A DNA stretch of 36,911 nt from Naegleria gruberi (taxonomy: Eukaryota), in the NCBI GenBank assembly GCA_000004985.1, contig GG739031.1; one strand, 5' to 3'. Under the pieces are notes generated by a model, which searched no databases, was not told the origin of the DNA, and was given only the letters and a program-made list of their open reading frames with translations. This document shows, piece by piece, positions 7,001-36,911 of this stretch; position 1 is the first letter of the stretch; each line of letters begins with the position of its first letter. A program made the translations under genes and the position numbers.

Positions 7001-10000
7001 NNNNNNNNNNNNNNNNNNNNNNNNNNNNNNNNNNNNNNNNNNNNNNNNNNNNNNNNNNNNNNNNNNNNNNNNNNNNNNNNNNNNNNNNNNNNNNNNNNNN
7101 NNNNNNNNNNNNNNNNNNNNNNNNNNNNNNNNNNNNNNNNNNNNNNNNNNNNNNNNNNNNNNNNNNNNNNNNNNNNNNNNNNNNNNNNNNNNNNNNNNNN
7201 NNNNNNNNNNNNNNNNNNNNNNNNNNNNNNNNNNNNNNNNNNNNNNNNNNNNNNNNNNNNNNNNNNNNNNNNNNNNNNNNNNNNNNNNNNNNNNNNNNNN
7301 NNNNNNNNNNNNNNNNNNNNNNNNNNNNNNNNNNNNNNNNNNNNNNNNNNNNNNNNNNNNNNNNNNNNNNNNNNNNNNNNNNNNNNNNNNNNNNNNNNNN
7401 NNNNNNNNNNNNNNNNNNNNNNNNNNNNNNNNNNNNNNNNNNNNNNNNNNNNNNNNNNNNNNNNNNNNNNNNNNNNNNNNNNNNNNNNNNNNNNNNNNNN
7501 NNNNNNNNNNNNNNNNNNNNNNNNNNNNNNNNNNNNNNNNNNNNNNNNNNNNNNNNNNNNNNNNNNNNNNNNNNNNNNNNNNNNNNNNNNNNNNNNNNNN
7601 NNNNNNNNNNNNNNNNNNNNNNNNNNNNNNNNNNNNNNNNNNNNNNNNNNNNNNNNNNNNNNNNNNNNNNNNNNNNNNNNNNNNNNNNNNNNNNNNNNNN
7701 NNNNNNNNNNNNNNNNNNNNNNNNNNNNNNNNNNNNNNNNNNNNNNNNNNNNNNNNNNNNNNNNNNNNNNNNNNNNNNNNNNNNNNNNNNNNNNNNNNNN
7801 NNNNNNNNNNNNNNNNNNNNNNNNNNNNNNNNNNNNNNNNNNNNNNNNNNNNNNNNNNNNNNNNNNNNNNNNNNNNNNNNNNNNNNNNNNNNNNNNNNNN
7901 NNNNNNNNNNNNNNNNNNNNNNNNNNNNNNNNNNNNNNNNNNNNNNNNNNNNNNNNNNNNNNNNNNNNNNNNNNNNNNNNNNNNNNNNNNNNNNNNNNNN
8001 NNNNNNNNNNNNNNNNNNNNNNNNNNNNNNNNNNNNNNNNNNNNNNNNNNNNNNNNNNNNNNNNNNNNNNNNNNNNNNNNNNNNNNNNNNNNNNNNNNNN
8101 NNNNNNNNNNNNNNNNNNNNNNNNNNNNNNNNNNNNNNNNNNNNNNNNNNNNNNNNNNNNNNNNNNNNNNNNNNNNNNNNNNNNNNNNNNNNNNNNNNNN
8201 NNNNNNNNNNNNNNNNNNNNNNNNNNNNNNNNNNNNNNNNNNNNNNNNNNNNNNNNNNNNNNNNNNNNNNNNNNNNNNNNNNNNNNNNNNNNNNNNNNNN
8301 NNNNNNNNNNNNNNNNNNNNNNNNNNNNNNNNNNNNNNNNNNNNNNNNNNNNNNNNNNNNNNNNNNNNNNNNNNNNNNNNNNNNNNNNNNNNNNNNNNNN
8401 NNNNNNNNNNNNNNNNNNNNNNNNNNNNNNNNNNNNNNNNNNNNNNNNNNNNNNNNNNNNNNNNNNNNNNNNNNNNNNNNNNNNNNNNNNNNNNNNNNNN
8501 NNNNNNNNNNNNNNNNNNNNNNNNNNNNNNNNNNNNNNNNNNNNNNNNNNNNNNNNNNNNNNNNNNNNNNNNNNNNNNNNNNNNNNNNNNNNNNNNNNNN
8601 NNNNNNNNNNNNNNNNNNNNNNNNNNNNNNNNNNNNNNNNNNNNNNNNNNNNNNNNNNNNNNNNNNNNNNNNNNNNNNNNNNNNNNNNNNNNNNNNNNNN
8701 NNNNNNNNNNNNNNNNNNNNNNNNNNNNNNNNNNNNNNNNNNNNNNNNNNNNNNNNNNNNNNNNNNNNNNNNNNNNNNNNNNNNNNNNNNNNNNNNNNNN
8801 NNNNNNNNNNNNNNNNNNNNNNNNNNNNNNNNNNNNNNNNNNNNNNNNNNNNNNNNNNNNNNNNNNNNNNNNNNNNNNNNNNNNNNNNNNNNNNNNNNNN
8901 NNNNNNNNNNNNNNNNNNNNNNNNNNNNNNNNNNNNNNNNNNNNNNNNNNNNNNNNNNNNNNNNNNNNNNNNNNNNNNNNNNNNNNNNNNNNNNNNNNNN
9001 NNNNNNNNNNNNNNNNNNNNNNNNNNNNNNNNNNNNNNNNNNNNNNNNNNNNNNNNNNNNNNNNNNNNNNNNNNNNNNNNNNNNNNNNNNNNNNNNNNNN
9101 NNNNNNNNNNNNNNNNNNNNNNNNNNNNNNNNNNNNNNNNNNNNNNNNNNNNNNNNNNNNNNNNNNNNNNNNNNNNNNNNNNNNNNNNNNNNNNNNNNNN
9201 NNNNNNNNNNNNNNNNNNNNNNNNNNNNNNNNNNNNNNNNNNNNNNNNNNNNNNNNNNNNNNNNNNNNNNNNNNNNNNNNNNNNNNNNNNNNNNNNNNNN
9301 NNNNNNNNNNNNNNNNNNNNNNNNNNNNNNNNNNNNNNNNNNNNNNNNNNNNNNNNNNNNNNNNNNNNNNNNNNNNNNNNNNNNNNNNNNNNNNNNNNNN
9401 NNNNNNNNNNNNNNNNNNNNNNNNNNNNNNNNNNNNNNNNNNNNNNNNNNNNNNNNNNNNNNNNNNNNNNNNNNNNNNNNNNNNNNNNNNNNNNNNNNNN
9501 NNNNNNNNNNNNNNNNNNNNNNNNNNNNNNNNNNNNNNNNNNNNNNNNNNNNNNNNNNNNNNNNNNNNNNNNNNNNNNNNNNNNNNNNNNNNNNNNNNNN
9601 NNNNNNNNNNNNNNNNNNNNNNNNNNNNNNNNNNNNNNNNNNNNNNNNNNNNNNNNNNNNNNNNNNNNNNNNNNNNNNNNNNNNNNNNNNNNNNNNNNNN
9701 NNNNNNNNNNNNNNNNNNNNNNNNNNNNNNNNNNNNNNNNNNNNNNNNNNNNNNNNNNNNNNNNNNNNNNNNNNNNNNNNNNNNNNNNNNNNNNNNNNNN
9801 NNNNNNNNNNNNNNNNNNNNNNNNNNNNNNNNNNNNNNNNNNNNNNNNNNNNNNNNNNNNNNNNNNNNNNNNNNNNNNNNNNNNNNNNNNNNNNNNNNNN
9901 NNNNNNNNNNNNNNNNNNNNNNNNNNNNNNNNNNNNNNNNNNNNNNNNNNNNNNNNNNNNNNNNNNNNNNNNNNNNNNNNNNNNNNNNNNNNNNNNNNNN

Positions 10001-27929: not shown

Positions 27930-28011
27930 ACATCCACAACATACTGTATGGCTGGGTCAATCCAATCACTCTTAGCAATGGAGAATACAATCTTAATATT
28001 ACAATAGTGTC

Positions 28012-28017
28012 TTTATT
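28012..28017 (-). promoter_or_regulatory. AATAAA polyadenylation signal overlapping the kinase stop codon
   Basis: The minus strand reads ...CTT CAA TAA AGA..., so AATAAA spans the TAA stop. Confidence 0.35.
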
Positions 28018-28906
28018 GAAGAGTGGAGAGACGATCCAAAATTTCATCAAGTGTGATTCTGTCAGCAGTGTTTAATCTGAGCATTGAAATTACCAATTCA
28101 ACGAGTCCTGTAGAGTATGGATAGTGTTGATTCTTGATAATGCTTGATCTGAGATGATTCATTACCTTTTCTTCATTACCATACTTCATAATGAGACCAT
28201 TAATCATGGTGACAGTATCAAAAGTAAGGAGTTGGTAACACGTTACACCCAAAGCAAAAATGTCAGCAGAAGCAAACATGGCAGTATTTTCTTCCAATTC
28301 TTCAGAAATGTCCAAAAGTTCTGGTGGAATGAATTGAAGAGAACCAGCTTGTTGAATATCACTTGCAGAATCACTGACTGATTTGGATAAACGGAATCCA
28401 ATTAAAACAGTGTCAATATTTTCAGAAGGATCCCATTCTCTCAGTAAAATATTATGTGGTTTGATGTTTCTGTGAACAATCTTGTGTTTGTTCATGTATT
28501 GGAGGGTACCAATGATTTGAGAAATAAACTTCTTAATGACTGCTTCTTTCAAAACAACTTTTTGTTTGATAAGGCTCTCAAGACTTCCCTTGTCGTAGTA
28601 ATCCATTTCCACACAGAGCGTACTCTTGTTTGTAAGATCGTTTGAGTTTTGGTTATTCTCTGGAATTTTGCATTTCAAAACAGCAACATCTCTAACACCA
28701 ATAATGTGGTCTTGTCTTAATTTGATTAAATTCATGGCTGATTTGAGAGACTTGTTGAGAGCTTCGGTACTAAAGAAATCTACCAATTTTACAGCAATTA
28801 CTGGAGGATCATCTTTTCCTCTATTAAATTTCTTTGCCTTGTATACATATCCGTTAGTTCCCTTGCCTAAAAGTTGCATCTTTCTATATCTTTCCTTCAA
28901 AATCAT
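28013..28906 (-). CDS. Protein-kinase-fold domain, predicted catalytically inactive (pseudokinase); the N-terminus may continue into the 50-N gap
   Basis: Motifs present in order: glycine loop LGKGTNGYVY; VAIK-like IAVK with Lys40 (codon 28787-28789); catalytic loop HRNIKPHN (28466-28474) where HRD-Asp is Asn; the DFG position reads IGFR (~28391-28399) with no Asp; APE-like FIPPE; subdomain IX D(IFALG); subdomain XI Arg (RITLDEI). The frame upstream of the Met at 28906 is still open (Glu) at the gap edge. TAA stop at 28013-28015. Confidence 0.75.
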   Translation of the reverse strand: MILKERYRKMQLLGKGTNGYVYKAKKFNRGKDDPPVIAVKLVDFFSTEALNKSLKSAMNLIKLRQDHIIGVRDVAVLKCKIPENNQNSNDLTNKSTLCVEMDYYDKGSLESLIKQKVVLKEAVIKKFISQIIGTLQYMNKHKIVHRNIKPHNILLREWDPSENIDTVLIGFRLSKSVSDSASDIQQAGSLQFIPPELLDISEELEENTAMFASADIFALGVTCYQLLTFDTVTMINGLIMKYGNEEKVMNHLRSSIIKNQHYPYSTGLVELVISMLRLNTADRITLDEILDRLSTLQ

Positions 28907-28909
28907 TTC

Positions 28910-28959
28910 NNNNNNNNNNNNNNNNNNNNNNNNNNNNNNNNNNNNNNNNNNNNNNNNNN
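28910..28959. other. Run of 50 N (conventional unknown-size scaffold gap)
   Basis: Exactly 50 n. Reading frames on either side cannot be related through it. Confidence 1.
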
Positions 28960-29948
28960 ATGCATCTAGAAATCAACTGGAGTAGAAATCCAGTTGGAGA
29001 AGGAGTAAAGGTTGATTCAGTTACTCTAGGAACTGATGGAGAATGCGGTCTATTATTGATTGATGGAGGATATTGAGGAGGTAAAGTACTAGACACGCTA
29101 TTATAGAGTGGTGGAGCAGTTGATTGGGCAAATGGTTGTGTTTGAAGGAAATAGTTTGGTGGTGGTGGTTGAATAGGTTGATAGGTTTGAGGTTGCGCAT
29201 TTGAGAGTATTGGTTGATAGATAGATTGAGCTTGTTGGAATGTGTAAGAAGGAGGAGGTTGATTAAGAGTTGGTTGGTTAATAATCAAATTGCCTTGGTA
29301 TGAAGGAGGTGAAACAATTTGAGGTTGAGGCACATTCCCATATACAAGTGCATTCAAATCAATTCCGTTATGTTTGACTCTTTCTTCGCAGGTCAATCCA
29401 AATTCATCTCTTATATACATATTTGCTCCATTTTTGATTAATGTCTTGACAACATTCCAGTGTTTGCATTGAATGGCAACTTGAAGAGAATTCATGTTGC
29501 GATCCATAACTTTCAAATCAACTTGAGCTCCATGTTTTATCAACCATTCAACTGCCTCTGGATTGTTATGTTTAGATAATGCATAGAGTGGTGTTTCACG
29601 TTCTTGATTCAAACAATCCACAATGAGAATGTTATGTTTAAGATTCTTAGTAATAAGATAATTAGCTCTTTCGAAATTCCTTATACGGAGAGCATTAATA
29701 AATTTTTCAACTTGAGTAGCAATTACTTGATTAACAATAATGTCCATGCTTGGATTTGTTGGAATGGTAACTGTTTTTGGCTTGGCACCCATTCTAATGA
29801 GATAGGAAGCAAATGGAATAAGATTTCTTTCCATACAATATTGTAAAATACTTCTTCCATAAATTATTCCATTAGTATTGCCTCCTCTTCTAATGAGGAA
29901 TTTCAACATTTTCATATTTACAGAATCTACAGCTACACCAAGAGCAGT
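28960..29948 (-). CDS. Exon 2 of an ankyrin-repeat protein: about four ANK repeats followed by a P/Q-rich low-complexity tail with four PPxY motifs; 3' end lost in the gap
   Basis: ANK-like units: TALGVAVDSVNMKMLKFLIRRGGNTN; GIIYGRSILQYCMERNLIPFASYLIRMGAKPK; ETPLYALSKHNNPEAVEWLIKHGAQVDLKV; NSLQVAIQCKHWNVVKTLIKNGANMYIRDEFGLT. The tail (~28989-29336) carries PPSY, PPPSY, PPPNY and PPQY. The frame is open to the gap edge (…SPTGFLLQLISRC). The exon starts right after a TAG acceptor, so the in-frame stop upstream of the track's 'M' at 29915 is the acceptor itself. Confidence 0.72.
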
Positions 29949-30092
29949 CTAATTTCCGTTTAATCCATTATTGTAAATTAAAATTCATTTCAATCACCAT
30001 TAAAATCTTCATATTAGAATTTTAAATACTTACGCACTAATCATCAATTAATTTATCAGTTAAATTATAAAGAAATATGAAAATTTACTTAC
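29949..30092 (-). other. Spliceosomal intron, 144 nt, ~25% GC (GTAAGT...AAATTAG)
   Basis: On the minus strand ...GAT ACT AGT GGA|GTAAGTAAATTTTC... ends in ...ggattaaacggaaatTAG|ACT GCT CTT GGT. Both flanks are in phase 0. Splicing joins ...INDCDTSG|TALGVAVDSVN... and completes an ankyrin repeat across the junction. The unspliced frame reaches a stop after 10 codons. Confidence 0.65.
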
Positions 30093-30548
30093 TCCACTAG
30101 TATCACAATCATTTATTCCGGCTTCTCTGTTATTGATCATGGCTTCAACCATTTCATAATTTCCCTCCCGAACCATCTTTAAAAGCAAGCTAATCTTTCC
30201 ATTGTTACCTTGTTGATAATTATTGTTAGCACAATTACTAGTATTACTACTCGTATTCATACCACTCGAATTATTATTAATATTATTAATATTATTATTA
30301 TAATTATTATTGCTACCCGGAAGAGAAGCTTGTCCAGATCCACCCGATCCCATCGCCATGCCCATCGAAGCAACCATAAAGGACGAAGATGACAATGGAC
30401 TCGTTGTCGTAGTGGTTGTTGTTGTTAGTAGTGGTGAGGAGGGTTTTTCATCAGCACCTCCTCCTGCTAAATCATCTTGTTGTTTTCCACCATCATCATT
30501 GCTCGAACTGGAGAGTTTCATTTTTTGTCGTAGTGTTTGAAAGACCAT
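30093..30548 (-). CDS. Exon 1 of the ankyrin-repeat protein: S/T/N-rich low-complexity N-terminus plus the first ANK repeat; start at 30548, or at the second Met at 30521
   Basis: The protein reads MVFQTLRQKMKLSSSSNDDGG...PLLTTTTTTTTSPLSSSS...NNNYNNNINNINNNSSG...GKISLLLKMVREGNYEMVEAMINNREAGINDCDTSG. Exactly 152 codons fit between 30548 and the donor at 30093. The second ATG (30519-30521) has a better A-rich context (aaaaATGaaa) than the first (cacgATGgtc). Confidence 0.6.
30219..30425 (-). repeat. Coding low-complexity region: (Thr)8 at 30402-30425 and an Asn-rich tract at ~30219-30314
   Basis: An ACN x8 codon run, and an AAT-dominated tract NNNYNNNINNINNNSSGMNTSSNTSNCANNNYQQGNNG. Confidence 0.6.
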
Positions 30549-30661
30549 CGTGATGCAAAGTTCATGTGTTGTTGTAGTTGATTGTCTATTGTTGTTGTTG
30601 GTGATGAAAGTTGTTGGTTAAAGAAAGTTTGGAGGGGTTGGTGTTGATCTTCCGAAAGAAG

Positions 30662-30668
30662 CTGAAAA
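30662..30668 (-). promoter_or_regulatory. TTTTCAG acceptor-like site 113 nt upstream of ATG(30548); candidate 5'UTR or trans-splice acceptor
   Basis: The minus strand reads tctttcgTTTTCAG|cttctttcgg..., a strong pyrimidine-tract acceptor with no detectable upstream exon in the readable sequence. Confidence 0.2.
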
Positions 30669-30821
30669 CGAAAGACTATTTTTTTTGTTTTTTGGCCAAG
30701 TCACTTGCCAAATAGAAGGCACATGTGAAAGGTGAATTAATTTTGGTATTTGTTGTGAATATGGGAGTGGATTTGATTGGTTGGACAGAAAGTTTGTGAA
30801 TATCTATGAACAACAAGTTCA

Positions 30822-30827
30822 TTTATT
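30822..30827 (-). promoter_or_regulatory. AATAAA polyadenylation signal, probably for the upstream minus-strand gene ending at 31053
   Basis: Minus strand ...ttattgtAATAAAtgaac..., ~230 nt 3' of the stop at 31053-31055. Confidence 0.3.
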
Positions 30828-31052
30828 ACAATAAAAACTTGATCAAGCAACAGACTTGGTTGTATCCTATTGTGTGATTTTCTCAGAAATTACGAACGCG
30901 CAAAGAAATCTCAATCCAACTTAATGACATAATTCAAATAGAACCAATAATGTTACCTATTCTCAACTTGCATCGTTTTCCAATTATCAATCCTATTCTG
31001 AAATATTAGAAAAGCTCCCAATTACCGTTGATAATTACAGAGAAGTATTACT

Positions 31053-31154
31053 TCATAGTAGTTGTCCTGGAATCCCAAAATTAAAAAAGATTGTAAACAG
31101 TCTTTTTAGATAAATTCCATTATGTAACTCAATCAATTTGAATAGCACAACATC
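31053..31154 (-). CDS. Possible C-terminal coding fragment (…DVVLFKLIELHNGIYLKRLFTIFFNFGIPGQLL*) of a minus-strand gene whose body lies in the N run
   Basis: A 33-codon open frame contiguous with the gap edge, followed by an AATAAA ~230 nt downstream. There is no domain evidence, so this is weak. Confidence 0.25.
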   Translation of the reverse strand, partial: DVVLFKLIELHNGIYLKRLFTIFFNFGIPGQLL

Positions 31155-34478: not shown

Positions 34479-34706
34479 CCGAAAGGATTGTTTACAATAA
34501 TTAATCAGAATCAGAAGAACTGTTTGAATTCTCTGTTGAAATTCCTCTCTAACTCTCTTCTTGCTGTTATTCTTTTCATTCTCCTTTGATACATCATTAT
34601 CACCCTTCTTCGATTTCTTCCTAAGGATCTCTTCAACTACACTTGTAGTGGATTCACCATTAGAATTCTCACCCTCCAATTTGCTTTTGCTTTGCTCTTG
34701 ATTGTT
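34479..34706 (-). CDS. Internal or 5' coding exon (no ATG in frame) of a minus-strand gene, K/E/S/N-rich, continuing into the N run
   Basis: The frame opens immediately after a TTTTTAG acceptor at 34707-34708. It reads NNQEQSKSKLEGENSNGESTTSVVEEILRKKSKKGDNDVSKENEKNNSKKRVREEFQQRIQ... with no stop or Met in 76 codons. The 'M' assigned by the ORF track at 34679 is a TTG codon. Confidence 0.45.
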
Positions 34707-34744
34707 CTAAAAACATTCTTGTCCTTGGTAAGCTTTGCTCTTAC
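34707..34744 (-). other. Candidate 38-nt intron (GTAAGA...TTTTTAG) joining an upstream mini-exon (ATG AAT GGC AAA, or a longer exon) to the 34706 exon
   Basis: Both splice signals are consensus. Removing 38 nt shifts frame A (...YYRMNGK) into the frame of the downstream exon exactly. The size is at the lower limit for spliceosomal introns, and the GC content (37%) is not lower than the flanking exons. Confidence 0.3.
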
Positions 34745-34858
34745 TTTGCCATTCATTCGATAATAATCTTGATGTGCAAACAAGTAAGATCTGAGCAGTT
34801 CTCTCGGAAAGCTCACAAATTTCAACACTATTACTTGATCGCCATGTTGAATAGTCAA
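34745..34858 (-). CDS. Possible first coding segment, frame A (…FPRELLRSYLFAHQDYYRMNGK); the only in-frame ATG is 4 codons before the donor (34754-34756)
   Basis: The ORF track's start at 34856-34858 is TTG, not ATG. The nearest ATG (caacATGgcg) is out of frame and reads M-A-I-K-stop. It is unclear whether this is coding or 5'UTR. Confidence 0.2.
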
Positions 34859-35125
34859 CTGCGATAATTTGATATCTTGATTTTAGACTTGGTGTACCAG
34901 CTTAGTTATTATCTGAATCTGAATTTGAATCTGATCAGGGCATGAAATCAAAATCTCCAATTTTAGATCAACATTGAAAGGCAACTCTCAAATTTGTTGC
35001 TATGATTCTATGCATGTATTATATATATGAATATTGCAGGATATGATGGCCATGATTCCAGTTCTTTATTGGGAGAAATTCGATCTCCTCTTCCTGAAAC
35101 AAAAATATCCTTCATTTGGAAGATT

Positions 35126-35197
35126 GTCATAATTATGTGGGGGTGGGTGGGTCGTGAAAAAAGGATGTCCATAATTACGTGGTCCAGAGTGGGTCAG
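35126..35197. repeat. Cluster of short repeated motifs: GTC(C)ATAATTA(T/C)GTGG x2 and G-rich GGGTGGGTGGGTC / GTGGGTC
   Basis: 35126-35140 gtcataattatgtgg; 35139-35153 ggggggtgggtgggtc; 35167-35182 gtccataattacgtgg; 35188-35197 agtgggtcag. It lies in the divergent intergenic region between the minus-strand gene (start ~34858) and the plus-strand F-box gene. Confidence 0.5.
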
Positions 35198-35617
35198 AAA
35201 GTAGAGCAGAGCAAAAACAAAAATTGGCAAAAGTAGAGCCGAAGGTTTATTAGCCAAGAGTGAGACAGCGTTCAAAGTATCAATTATCACTTGTTCTGCT
35301 AGCAACAAGTACTTCTGGGTTCTTGATTGTTTGTGTACCAACAACTTTGGGTAGGCATTCATCTAGATTGTTATGGTTGACTGTGCTATGGCTGATGTGG
35401 AAGGAAGCAAAGGGAGAACTCTCCTCCTGGTGGTACTGATGAAGGTTGGTAGTTAGCAGGGTGGTGATGAAATCATGAGTAATTGTTGTTTGTTGTTTTT
35501 TTTTGTTGAATATATAACGGTCAGAACATTCAACTTTCAGCGGTAACATGTTTGCTGGTAGTGTGAAAAAACTCACATGCAGTGGCCAGGATTTGTTGGG
35601 ACGATCTTACAGTGAGG

Positions 35618-35653
35618 TTGGGTGGGTCAAAAAGTGAGGGTCGTAATTATGAC
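35618..35653. repeat. Second copy of the composite motif (TTGGGTGGGTC-AAAAAG-TGAGG-GTCGTAATTATGAC)
   Basis: The same order (GGGTGGGTC, A-run, TAATTA-core element) as at 35139-35182, ~480 bp away and ~75% identical. Confidence 0.45.
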
Positions 35654-36405
35654 AATCTTCCTTTCTTCACAAATCTTATTCGCTGATTTAATATCTTGCT
35701 GAATTGGAACATATGTTGTTGAAAGAGTGAAAATGAGTCCTTCTCCAAAAAGGCAGAATTCATTGCTAAAGGGCAGTATAATCAACAGCATTTTACAAGT
35801 TCAGTTCACAGAACATTTGGAGGTGCCTTCTTTACGGAAACAAATCTTGCTAATCCTTTAACACCTGCAGAACAAGTTCAATAGAATCCATTACGTATTA
35901 TGAACATTGTCAATTATGTGATCTTCTTGATCTGAATGAACCCTTAAATTCAGGACAATGTATTGCTGGCAGCTATGTAGCGAGTAAGAAACGAGATGCT
36001 TTGATACAAAAACCAAGAAGGTTTGTCAGGTTGAGTCCTTTTCTAATGACTTTTATTCAATACAGCTTGCTATTGAAGATACATTTAAAAAAGACTTTAT
36101 TATTTTCAAGACTTGGTGAAATTTCAAATAGTTTCGAAAAAATTTACAAGTCGAGCTTGGGCAATTCTACATTTCGCTCACATCGCAAAAATCCATTAAC
36201 AAAAAATCGTTAAAAGTCAAGCCAGCATTTGCGAAAAGGGTTTAGCGGGAATATAAGTATCTAAGTATTTAATTATTTATTCTTGTACTATTATTATTTA
36301 ATATGAAGAATGAATAACCACTAAAGATTAAAATTGTTTCATTGTTTATTAAGTTCATAACTTAATTTCCAAGTCAAAAAAAACGAACAACTACCTTAAC
36401 CTTAC

Positions 36406-36495
36406 ATGAAGATGAGGATGGTCTTGGTGGCAGGGGTTTCTCTCAGAAAAAACGAAAGTTTTTGGATCATTATTCATCAAACTTTATTAAACCGA
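36406..36495 (+). CDS. Candidate first coding exon of the F-box gene (MKMRMVLVAGVSLRKNESFWIIIHQTLLNR)
   Basis: An ATG at 36406 lies 40 nt after the in-frame stop that opens the downstream long frame. The 30 codons end at a CGA|GTAAAT donor. The long F-box frame has no Met before the F-box, so an upstream start exon is needed. Confidence 0.3.
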
Positions 36496-36542
36496 GTAAA
36501 TATTTAATTCTCTCTCAAGAAAATCTTTGCTCTGATAAACAG
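36496..36542 (+). other. Candidate 47-nt intron (GTAAAT...AAACAG)
   Basis: It joins phase-0 exon 1 to the long open frame at 36543. The acceptor is weak and the intron is short, so this is speculative. Confidence 0.3.
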
Positions 36543-36911
36543 CAGGATGACAAAAATTCACACTTTCGAGAAACAATAATTATTCCAGAGAGAAATAATT
36601 ACAATATTCTTTCCCATAGCCAAATAGTTGATGATTGTTGGCAGATTATTTTTGATTTTGTGGAAAAGATTGAAGATAGGAAGAGTATGATTCTTGTGTG
36701 CAAACATTGGGCCAACATGTTTATTCAACCATTTATTGGATATTGTTATGAGATTTATGACGAAAATAGACATTTGAATGGATTGACAGAATATGTCGAA
36801 GAGAATGGAGAAGATGGATTTGTTTGTGAGGGAGGAATGTTTTTTACTGAAATGGCAACTTGGAAAGAACCTCTTTGCTATGATGGTCTGGAAGAGGAGG
36901 ATACTCTGGAT
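36543..36911 (+). CDS. F-box-like protein, 5' portion; the frame is open to the last base of the window
   Basis: The protein reads QDDKNSHFRETIIIPERNNYNILSHSQIVDDCWQIIFDFVEKIEDRKSMILVCKHWANMFIQPFIGYCYEIYDENRHLNGLTEYVEENGEDGFVCEGGMFFTEMATWKEPLCYDGLEEEDTLD. The segment at ~36627-36728 matches the F-box pattern (W..I...L....L..VCK.W..L). There is no stop in 123 codons, and the same frame is open back to 36366. Confidence 0.55.

Follow-up and report, generated by a model that had tools for sequence, protein, structure and literature searches.

A kinase-fold domain lacking its catalytic residues in an ankyrin-repeat protein of Naegleria gruberi

Is a protein kinase domain that lacks the residues of phosphate transfer a working pseudokinase, an unusual enzyme or simply a faulty sequence? 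The question is raised by a 297-codon open reading frame (ORF) at positions 28013-28906, on the minus strand, of a 36,911-nt stretch of DNA ('the window'), which is an entire draft scaffold of Naegleria gruberi (contig GG739031.1). A sequence-only reading had described the ORF as a predicted pseudokinase. We find that the ORF is the C-terminal domain of one gene, NAEGRDRAFT_76568, annotated but uncharacterised, whose product consists, in that order, of a low-complexity N-terminus, about five ankyrin (ANK) repeats, a linker rich in PPxY motifs and the kinase-fold domain. The best explanation, to which we assign a probability of roughly 0.7, is a selected pseudokinase: a domain of active-family origin in which three losses became fixed, probably used as a non-catalytic interaction or allosteric module with a pocket that would still bind nucleotide.

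The gene was identified by an exhaustive HMMER protein search, in which residues 29-297 of the ORF were 100% identical to a 736-residue protein (XP_002668518.1 / EFC35774.1 / D2W579_NAEGR) with the database name 'predicted protein NAEGRDRAFT_76568 [Naegleria gruberi]'. The sequence-only reading had left the ORF without an identity; an annotated gene can now be named, and it is still uncharacterised. Literature searches returned no mention of NAEGRDRAFT_76568, of FDP41_013621 (its N. fowleri orthologue, described below) or of D2W579, and no paper on Naegleria pseudokinases specifically.

The fold is that of a protein kinase. Positions 1-259 of the 263 in the PF00069 (Pkinase) profile matched ORF residues 7-291 at 113.6 bits (cut-off 31.7; E = 1.3e-32); the match to PF07714 was weaker (69 bits). 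The AlphaFold2 model (mean predicted local distance difference test score, pLDDT, 85.6; predicted template modelling score, pTM, 0.86) has the bilobal arrangement of kinases, with strands and helix alphaC in the N-lobe and a helical C-lobe; low confidence is confined to an N-lobe insert (residues 89-93) and the activation loop (174-185). A Foldseek search with this model returned at least 1998 PDB chains at E <= 0.001. All 50 chains listed were protein kinases, the best matches being ULK1, phosphorylase kinase (PhK) and CaMKII (E about 1e-13 for these three) and DAPK3.

The domain and its motifs are located as follows.

28013-28909, minus strand: pseudokinase domain, the final coding stretch; stop codon at 28013-28015, frame open at 28909 into a gap of N
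28844-28867, minus strand: Gly loop GKGTNGYV (GxGxxGxV), intact (family alignment)
28787-28801, minus strand: VIAVK, with the beta3 (VAIK) Lys40 at 28787-28789, kept; invariant column K41 in alignment A2 (also motif table)
28733-28744, minus strand: alphaC segment KSAM, with Ser56 at the Glu position (family alignment; H-x-N-I spacing by eye)
28451-28474, minus strand: catalytic loop HRNIKPHN; HRN at 28466-28474, Asp replaced by Asn147 (AAC, 28466-28468), loop Lys and Asn kept
28391-28399, minus strand: GFR replacing DFG; Gly170 for the Mg-binding Asp, Arg172 for the Gly
28319-28327, minus strand: PPE, equivalent of APE, at the end of the activation segment (family alignment)
28247-28264, minus strand: DIFALG (D-x-x-x-x-G, subdomain IX)
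28052-28066, minus strand: ADRIT, with the Arg of subdomain XI

All elements that the sequence-only reading had seen in place (Gly loop, VAIK Lys, APE-like motif, residues of subdomains IX and XI) were found by family alignment and motif coordinates, and HRN lies exactly where the catalytic Asp had been reported as Asn. The placement of both substituted motifs was obtained in two ways. When phmmer aligns the domain to TNIK, a kinase of the STE20 type, HRDIKGQN stands opposite HRNIKPHN and LVDFGVS opposite LIGFRLS; the same placement is given by a MAFFT alignment of 53 domains (the ORF and 52 related kinase domains), where HRN lines up with the HRD of 46 of 50 family domains. The claim of an IGFR without Asp at the DFG site stands as well. 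A pseudokinase is defined at the sequence level by the absence of at least one of the VAIK Lys, HRD Asp and DFG Asp; here both Asp are absent.

A third loss concerns the Glu of helix alphaC. In the gap-free alignment of the family its position is ten residues ahead of H-x-N-I (spacing as in PKA), and Glu stands there in 47 of the 50 other family domains, active members reading K/R/Q-E-A. The position is Ser56 in N. gruberi (KSAM), with no adjacent acidic residue, Thr in N. fowleri (KTAM) and Ala in an environmental orthologue, P0012 (RAGL). Much else is retained. Columns G17, G20, V22, A39, K41, H146, R147, K150, N153, I154 and F172 are invariant in alignment A2; the adenine-pocket residues of the catalytic spine (C-spine), Val22, Ala39 and Ile154, and the His and Phe of the regulatory spine (R-spine) are kept, and a conserved Ser-rich activation loop, LSKSVSDSASD, sits between GFR and PPE.

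Are the substitutions real? Suspicion of a sequencing or assembly error, or of a decaying pseudogene, is invited by the poor state of the draft scaffold (~82% N, with a gap in the gene itself) and by a public gene model that is visibly patched. The comparison with orthologues leaves this explanation with next to no weight. We retrieved two: FDP41_013621 of N. fowleri (P0011, 844 residues), 61-62% identical over the domain, and P0012 (590 residues), from an environmental heterolobosean on a JGI metagenome contig, 58% identical. Both have the architecture of ANK repeats, linker and kinase domain, and both read VHRNIKPxN and LIGFRLSKS and lack the alphaC Glu. The GFR codons of the three orthologues vary (Gly GGA, GGT and GGC; Arg CGT, CGT and AGA). 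Since two other organisms, each assembled independently, show identical losses spelled with different codons, base-call error is excluded; in N. fowleri GFR is encoded wholly within exon 2, right before an intron, so that it is not a splicing artefact either.

Decay is excluded by the substitution pattern. Nei-Gojobori counts over the domain gave proportions of synonymous differences (pS) of 0.70-0.79, i.e. saturated, and of nonsynonymous differences (pN) of 0.27-0.30, hence a ratio of nonsynonymous to synonymous rates (dN/dS) of ~0.16 or lower; the 297-codon frame is unbroken. Identity of the N. gruberi and N. fowleri proteins is 61% in the domain and 47% in the ANK region; their linkers do not align. 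The sequence-only reading had named conservation of HRN and GFR among orthologues as the mark of selection rather than error, and preferred a pseudokinase to a decaying gene: on both counts the three orthologues, with common losses and altered synonymous codons, agree with it. By these alignments and rates, all three losses are held by purifying selection.

Further orthologues were found neither in genome nor in viral nor in metagenome contigs (the last searched with the three-orthologue alignment), where matches were only 24-31% identical. A k-mer protein search gave nine weak matches (26-27%) with the N. gruberi domain and none with the N. fowleri domain; this search missed the Naegleria proteins themselves too. 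The intron that follows GFR in N. fowleri (locus 8447-8622) interrupts activation-loop codons right after LIGFRLSKST and is lacking in N. gruberi and in the metagenomic orthologue; it has thus been gained or lost within the genus. The UniRef entry of the N. fowleri protein (A0A6A5BT96) is auto-named 'non-specific serine/threonine protein kinase' despite the missing catalytic Asp, DFG Asp and alphaC Glu.

From which kinases does the domain derive? Among the 53 aligned heterolobosean kinase domains, the combination of Glu loss, HRN and GFR occurs only in the three orthologues. Two other domains are without HRD Asp or DFG Asp, and neither has HRN with GFR: domain 3 of the triple-kinase protein P0013 reads HRS/GGFG, an independent degeneration, and P0096 reads DLG, with its Asp kept. 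In a bootstrapped neighbour-joining tree the three orthologues form a clade (100%), whose sister at 94% bootstrap is N. lovaniensis C9374_005766 (P0165), an ANK-plus-kinase protein with Glu, HRD and DFG intact; the next branch, weakly supported, is Willaertia magna ABK040_006408 (P0017), again ANK plus kinase. No species is closer to N. fowleri than N. lovaniensis; P0165 is therefore a paralogue, separated by a duplication older than the split of N. gruberi and N. fowleri.

These two proteins resemble the N. gruberi product in having ANK repeats and a C-terminal kinase domain (33-39% identical to this domain), in the D-x-x-T-x-I motif after alphaF and in the Ser-rich activation loop, KSVGDSAS. 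They differ in keeping the alphaC Glu, HRD and DFG, in having no PPxY in the linker and in their PF00069 scores (139-142 versus 113.6 bits); in the family as a whole the orthologues score 112-114 bits versus 139-168 for active paralogues. Every named relative that was looked up belongs to Naegleria or Willaertia, and other family members bear DUF4116 repeats or NHL/EGF ectodomains. Tree and alignment indicate that the pseudokinase arose from an active-looking, lineage-specific ANK-kinase and that the losses occurred within the heterolobosean family.

Tandem arrangements of two to four kinase domains, some of them degenerate, were observed in P0013 (N. lovaniensis C9374_006567), P0016 and P0014. 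In P0013, domain 1 is degenerate (catalytic loop V-H-G-D-V-N-P-T-N, by eye), domain 2 is canonical and domain 3 is the HRS/GGFG domain mentioned above. Loss of catalytic residues has therefore been recurrent in this expansion.

A profile of 24 family domains run against PDB scored highest with CDPK (162 bits), ULK1/2 (160-161), NEK1/2/7 (144-157) and SLK/STK24 (143-153). These scores are nearly equal, and no group stands out. A pseudokinase of the Giardia ANK-Nek type (PMC3218828) was considered; the profile gives NEK no preference over CDPK, ULK and STE20 kinases. By these scores the domain classifies as a generic Ser/Thr eukaryotic protein kinase of an unnamed, lineage-specific Naegleria/Willaertia expansion, not as a tyrosine kinase-like (TKL) domain.

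Two features could nevertheless suggest a Naegleria orthologue of ILK or STRAD: the layout of N-terminal ANK repeats and C-terminal pseudokinase is that of ILK, and GFR resembles the GLR of STRADalpha. We give this origin hardly any credence. PF00069 outscores PF07714 (113.6 versus 69 bits); the 60 PDB chains that score best with the family profile are of CDPK, ULK, NEK and STE20 type, none of them ILK or STRAD; and the nearest relatives are heterolobosean kinases with HRD and DFG intact. ILK, moreover, has the DFG Asp (in DVK) and a degenerate Gly loop, the reverse of the pattern here (PMC4718504). The earlier statement that the domain is not ILK is borne out by the first three of these observations.

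Comparison with well-studied pseudokinases shows likenesses on single points. Two of the losses recur in HER3 (ErbB3), which has His740 instead of the alphaC Glu and, in an HRN motif, Asn815 instead of the catalytic Asp. HER3 binds ATP at about 1 uM and allosterically activates its paralogues (PMC4718504); it is, however, the domain of a receptor tyrosine kinase, with the DFG Asp present and a single Mg bound, whereas the domain described here has GFR and is a cytoplasmic Ser/Thr-type domain of an unrelated family. With STRADalpha it shares the change of DFG to Gly-hydrophobic-Arg (GLR there, GFR here), a resemblance only. STRADalpha binds ATP without a cation, Arg215 (of GLR) and His200 replacing the cation, and ATP strengthens allosteric activation of LKB1 (PMC4718504). 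The two are not orthologous: our domain nests in the heterolobosean family with an active ANK-kinase as sister (94% bootstrap), retains Asn in the catalytic loop at the place of His200 in STRADalpha, and is accompanied by ANK repeats and the PPxY linker.

ILK and RNase L share the order of N-terminal ankyrin repeats followed by a pseudokinase domain (PMC4718504). ILK differs in being TKL-like, with a degenerate Gly loop and the Asp kept in DVK, whose Lys341 contacts the phosphates (PMC4718504); here the Gly loop is intact, the Asp lost and the type of domain another. RNase L differs in its extra RNase domain and canonical ATP binding. The shared layout is convergent, and the protein belongs to none of the ILK, RNase L, HER3 and STRAD families.

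What surrounds the domain in the gene? Upstream of it, the following features were located.

28910-28959, no strand: assembly gap of 50 N within the gene, presumed to hide the end of the linker and an acidic motif
28960-29345, minus strand: Pro/Gln/Tyr-rich linker with five PPxY motifs (motif count versus shuffles)
29355-30194, minus strand: ankyrin-repeat region, interrupted by an intron (Pfam Ank_2 4.7e-15, Ank 2.9e-12; BLASTP 47% identity to N. fowleri)
29949-30092, minus strand: 144-nt spliceosomal intron (GTAAGT...TAG, the mark of a eukaryotic source) that divides an ANK repeat between DTSG and TALG; an intron at this place is also present in N. fowleri
30093-30548, minus strand: exon 1, encoding the first ANK repeat and, ahead of it, the low-complexity N-terminus with poly-Thr and poly-Asn; likely start ATG at 30548

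The 297-codon frame at 28013-28906 appears as such in the list of ORFs of the window. It had been described as intact, and it is indeed unbroken; it is not a complete gene, being open upstream to 28909 and the gap. The ATG at 28906 reads as an internal Met, because 'EMILKERY' corresponds in the alignment to 'EMVLKERY' and 'DMIMKERY', which in the orthologues are internal to one continuous coding stretch. The ANK ORF upstream on the same strand runs to the gap without a stop, the kinase ORF is open beyond it, and both orthologues encode ANK repeats, linker and kinase domain in one reading frame or exon; we therefore treat the two as a single ANK-pseudokinase gene.

Directly N-terminal to the domain both orthologues carry a conserved acidic motif, IE-x-Y-x-GDE-x-R-x-DF-xx-EEPK-x-L (residues ~523-549 of P0011, ~268-294 of P0012), which was not seen in the sequenced N. 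gruberi stretch. It presumably falls inside the gap 28910-28959, which then probably hides ~27 or more codons and has a real size of at least 80 nt. By coordinate arithmetic the frames that flank the gap differ by one base if it is exactly 50 nt long; its stated length is therefore probably nominal.

The linker contains five PPxY motifs (29298-29309, 29244-29255, 29151-29162, 29103-29114 and 29070-29081), where shuffling this linker gives an expectation of 0.37; none of 5000 shuffles reached five. The N. fowleri linker also has five (0.27 expected) and that of P0012 has one, and the motif was found in none of the five active relatives examined. Conservation does not extend to the rest of the linker. 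WW domains of class I classically bind PPxY.

How might such a protein work? In the explanation that we prefer, the domain descends from an active-looking Ser/Thr kinase of the Naegleria/Willaertia-specific family, several members of which have ANK repeats, and three residues required for phosphotransfer were lost: the alphaC Glu gave way to Ser, the HRD Asp to Asn and the DFG Asp to Gly, and the Gly of DFG gave way to Arg. With the catalytic base gone together with the Asp that binds metal and the Glu that anchors the Lys, we consider canonical phosphotransfer very unlikely. The domain would phosphorylate nothing and act as a protein-interaction or allosteric module, for which ANK repeats and PPxY motifs or linker could supply additional docking sites. 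Because the Gly loop, beta3 Lys, C-spine, loop Lys and Asn, and R-spine His and Phe are retained, we infer that the pocket still binds nucleotide. By analogy with STRADalpha such binding would probably need no metal: Arg172, invariant in GFR, would serve as cation surrogate and neutralise phosphates in the manner of Arg215 of GLR, and ATP would be a conformational cofactor. The active sister paralogue is a plausible partner, as in other pseudokinase/kinase pairs, and the conserved Ser-rich activation loop could be the substrate of another kinase.

The boldest form of this proposal, which we think doubtful, combines these elements: a metal-independent ATP switch, Arg172 standing in for Mg, would allosterically control the active sister ANK-kinase in Naegleria, the pathogen N. 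fowleri included, with PPxY motifs recruiting a WW partner. If true, it would represent an independently evolved pseudokinase-adaptor system in Heterolobosea, a lineage reported to be without Nedd4-type ligases. Recruitment of a Nedd4-type E3 ligase by PPxY is weakened as a candidate, since a HECT survey covering N. gruberi confines the C2-WW-HECT (Nedd4-like) ligases to Holozoa, Fungi and Apusozoa (PMC3673628); from Excavata, Nedd4-type ligases are reported to be absent.

Besides this restriction, several points weigh against a selected pseudokinase as we describe it. The comparison of orthologues comprises three sequences, the N. lovaniensis orthologue (inside the 50%-identity cluster of P0011) having been left out. 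The junction of ANK and kinase parts lies in the N gap, with flanks out of phase at exactly 50 nt. Literature on the biochemistry of the NAEGRDRAFT_76568 product or of any relative was not found. With the alphaC Glu gone, the beta3 Lys may be mis-positioned, and the case for nucleotide binding is read from retained residues. The substrate-binding elements, P+1 loop and APE, are well kept, which is also compatible with residual or different chemistry, and catalysis despite missing canonical residues has precedents in CASK, active without cation, and in JAK2 JH2, which autophosphorylates (PMC4718504).

The last two points are the strength of one rival, an atypical active enzyme that would transfer phosphate independently of metal, as CASK does, or perform different chemistry in the retained nucleotide pocket; strong constraint on the Gly loop, beta3 Lys, loop Lys and Asn and alphaF Asp speaks for it as well. 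We hold it to be improbable: alphaC Glu, catalytic base and metal-binding Asp are missing together, the alignment shows no acidic residue in the vicinity that might compensate, and the PF00069 scores (112-114 versus 139-168 bits for active paralogues) indicate a degenerate catalytic core. The opposite rival would have the pocket bind no nucleotide at all, its retained residues being structural and function residing in partner-binding surfaces. Such a pure scaffold would agree with the loss of two anchors of the ATP site, alphaC Glu and DFG Asp, and with VRK3, for which nucleotide binding is listed as 'None' (PMC4718504), yet GxGxxG, the beta3 Lys and the adenine-pocket Val, Ala and Ile have been kept across saturated divergence, and bulky residues that would fill the pocket are absent from the alignment. 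Where DFG has its Gly, moreover, Arg has been kept in all three orthologues despite the change between CGT and AGA codons, which would be expected of a phosphate contact like that of Arg215 in STRADalpha. A pure scaffold therefore seems unlikely to us, and a pseudokinase that retains its nucleotide pocket is the explanation that we favour.

Pseudokinases make up about one-tenth of the human kinome (PMC4718504) and are often allosteric regulators. The protein described here is a new, lineage-specific pseudokinase; pseudokinase scaffolds themselves are already well known, and with pseudokinases so common the case implies no unexpected principle and opens no long-standing question. It offers a clean, independently evolved heterolobosean example, with a HER3-like pair of losses, a STRAD-like G-x-R and an ILK-like layout, and one testable case of how kinase families shed catalysis while keeping the fold. 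Its practical value lies in correction of the N. gruberi model XP_002668518.1 and of the automatic kinase name of FDP41_013621.

The model XP_002668518.1 is wrong at the gap, which it bridges by an artificial GT...AG 'intron' (28821-28977) that deletes ORF residues 1-28, the Gly loop among them. Its start (ATG 30521) is probably wrong too: the ATG at 30548 yields MVF..., matching the MVF... N-terminus of N. fowleri. Inside the 144-nt intron the model places a 3-nt micro-exon, TGC, at 30034-30036. A single GT-AG intron cannot reproduce the 'SGCTALG' of the public protein, for which the model uses this micro-exon; the micro-exon is doubtful, and the single 144-nt intron fits the N. fowleri protein better.

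Real sequence in the window is limited to positions 1-1092, 27930-28909, 28960-31154 and 34479-36911, the remainder being N; in all ~6.7 kb of 36.9 kb are sequenced (~82% N), with ~35% GC in the sequenced stretches. A comparison by tblastx of these four segments with the N. fowleri locus and its 6-kb flanks matched the gene alone, a result limited by the large N gaps. The gene downstream of the N. fowleri orthologue encodes an F-box-like/leucine-rich repeat (LRR) protein; tblastx detected no similarity between the flanks. Elsewhere in the window, ARAGORN predicted a tRNA-Asp (GTC) gene at 138-208 on the minus strand. An ORF at 481-1092 on the plus strand, beginning MSASSTTAADHSVKKRK..., encodes an acidic low-complexity product, heads towards the 26.8-kb N gap and probably contains an intron. 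At the scaffold end (36366-36911, plus strand) an open frame has an F-box-like stretch, IVDDCWQIIFDFV...LVCKHWANMF.

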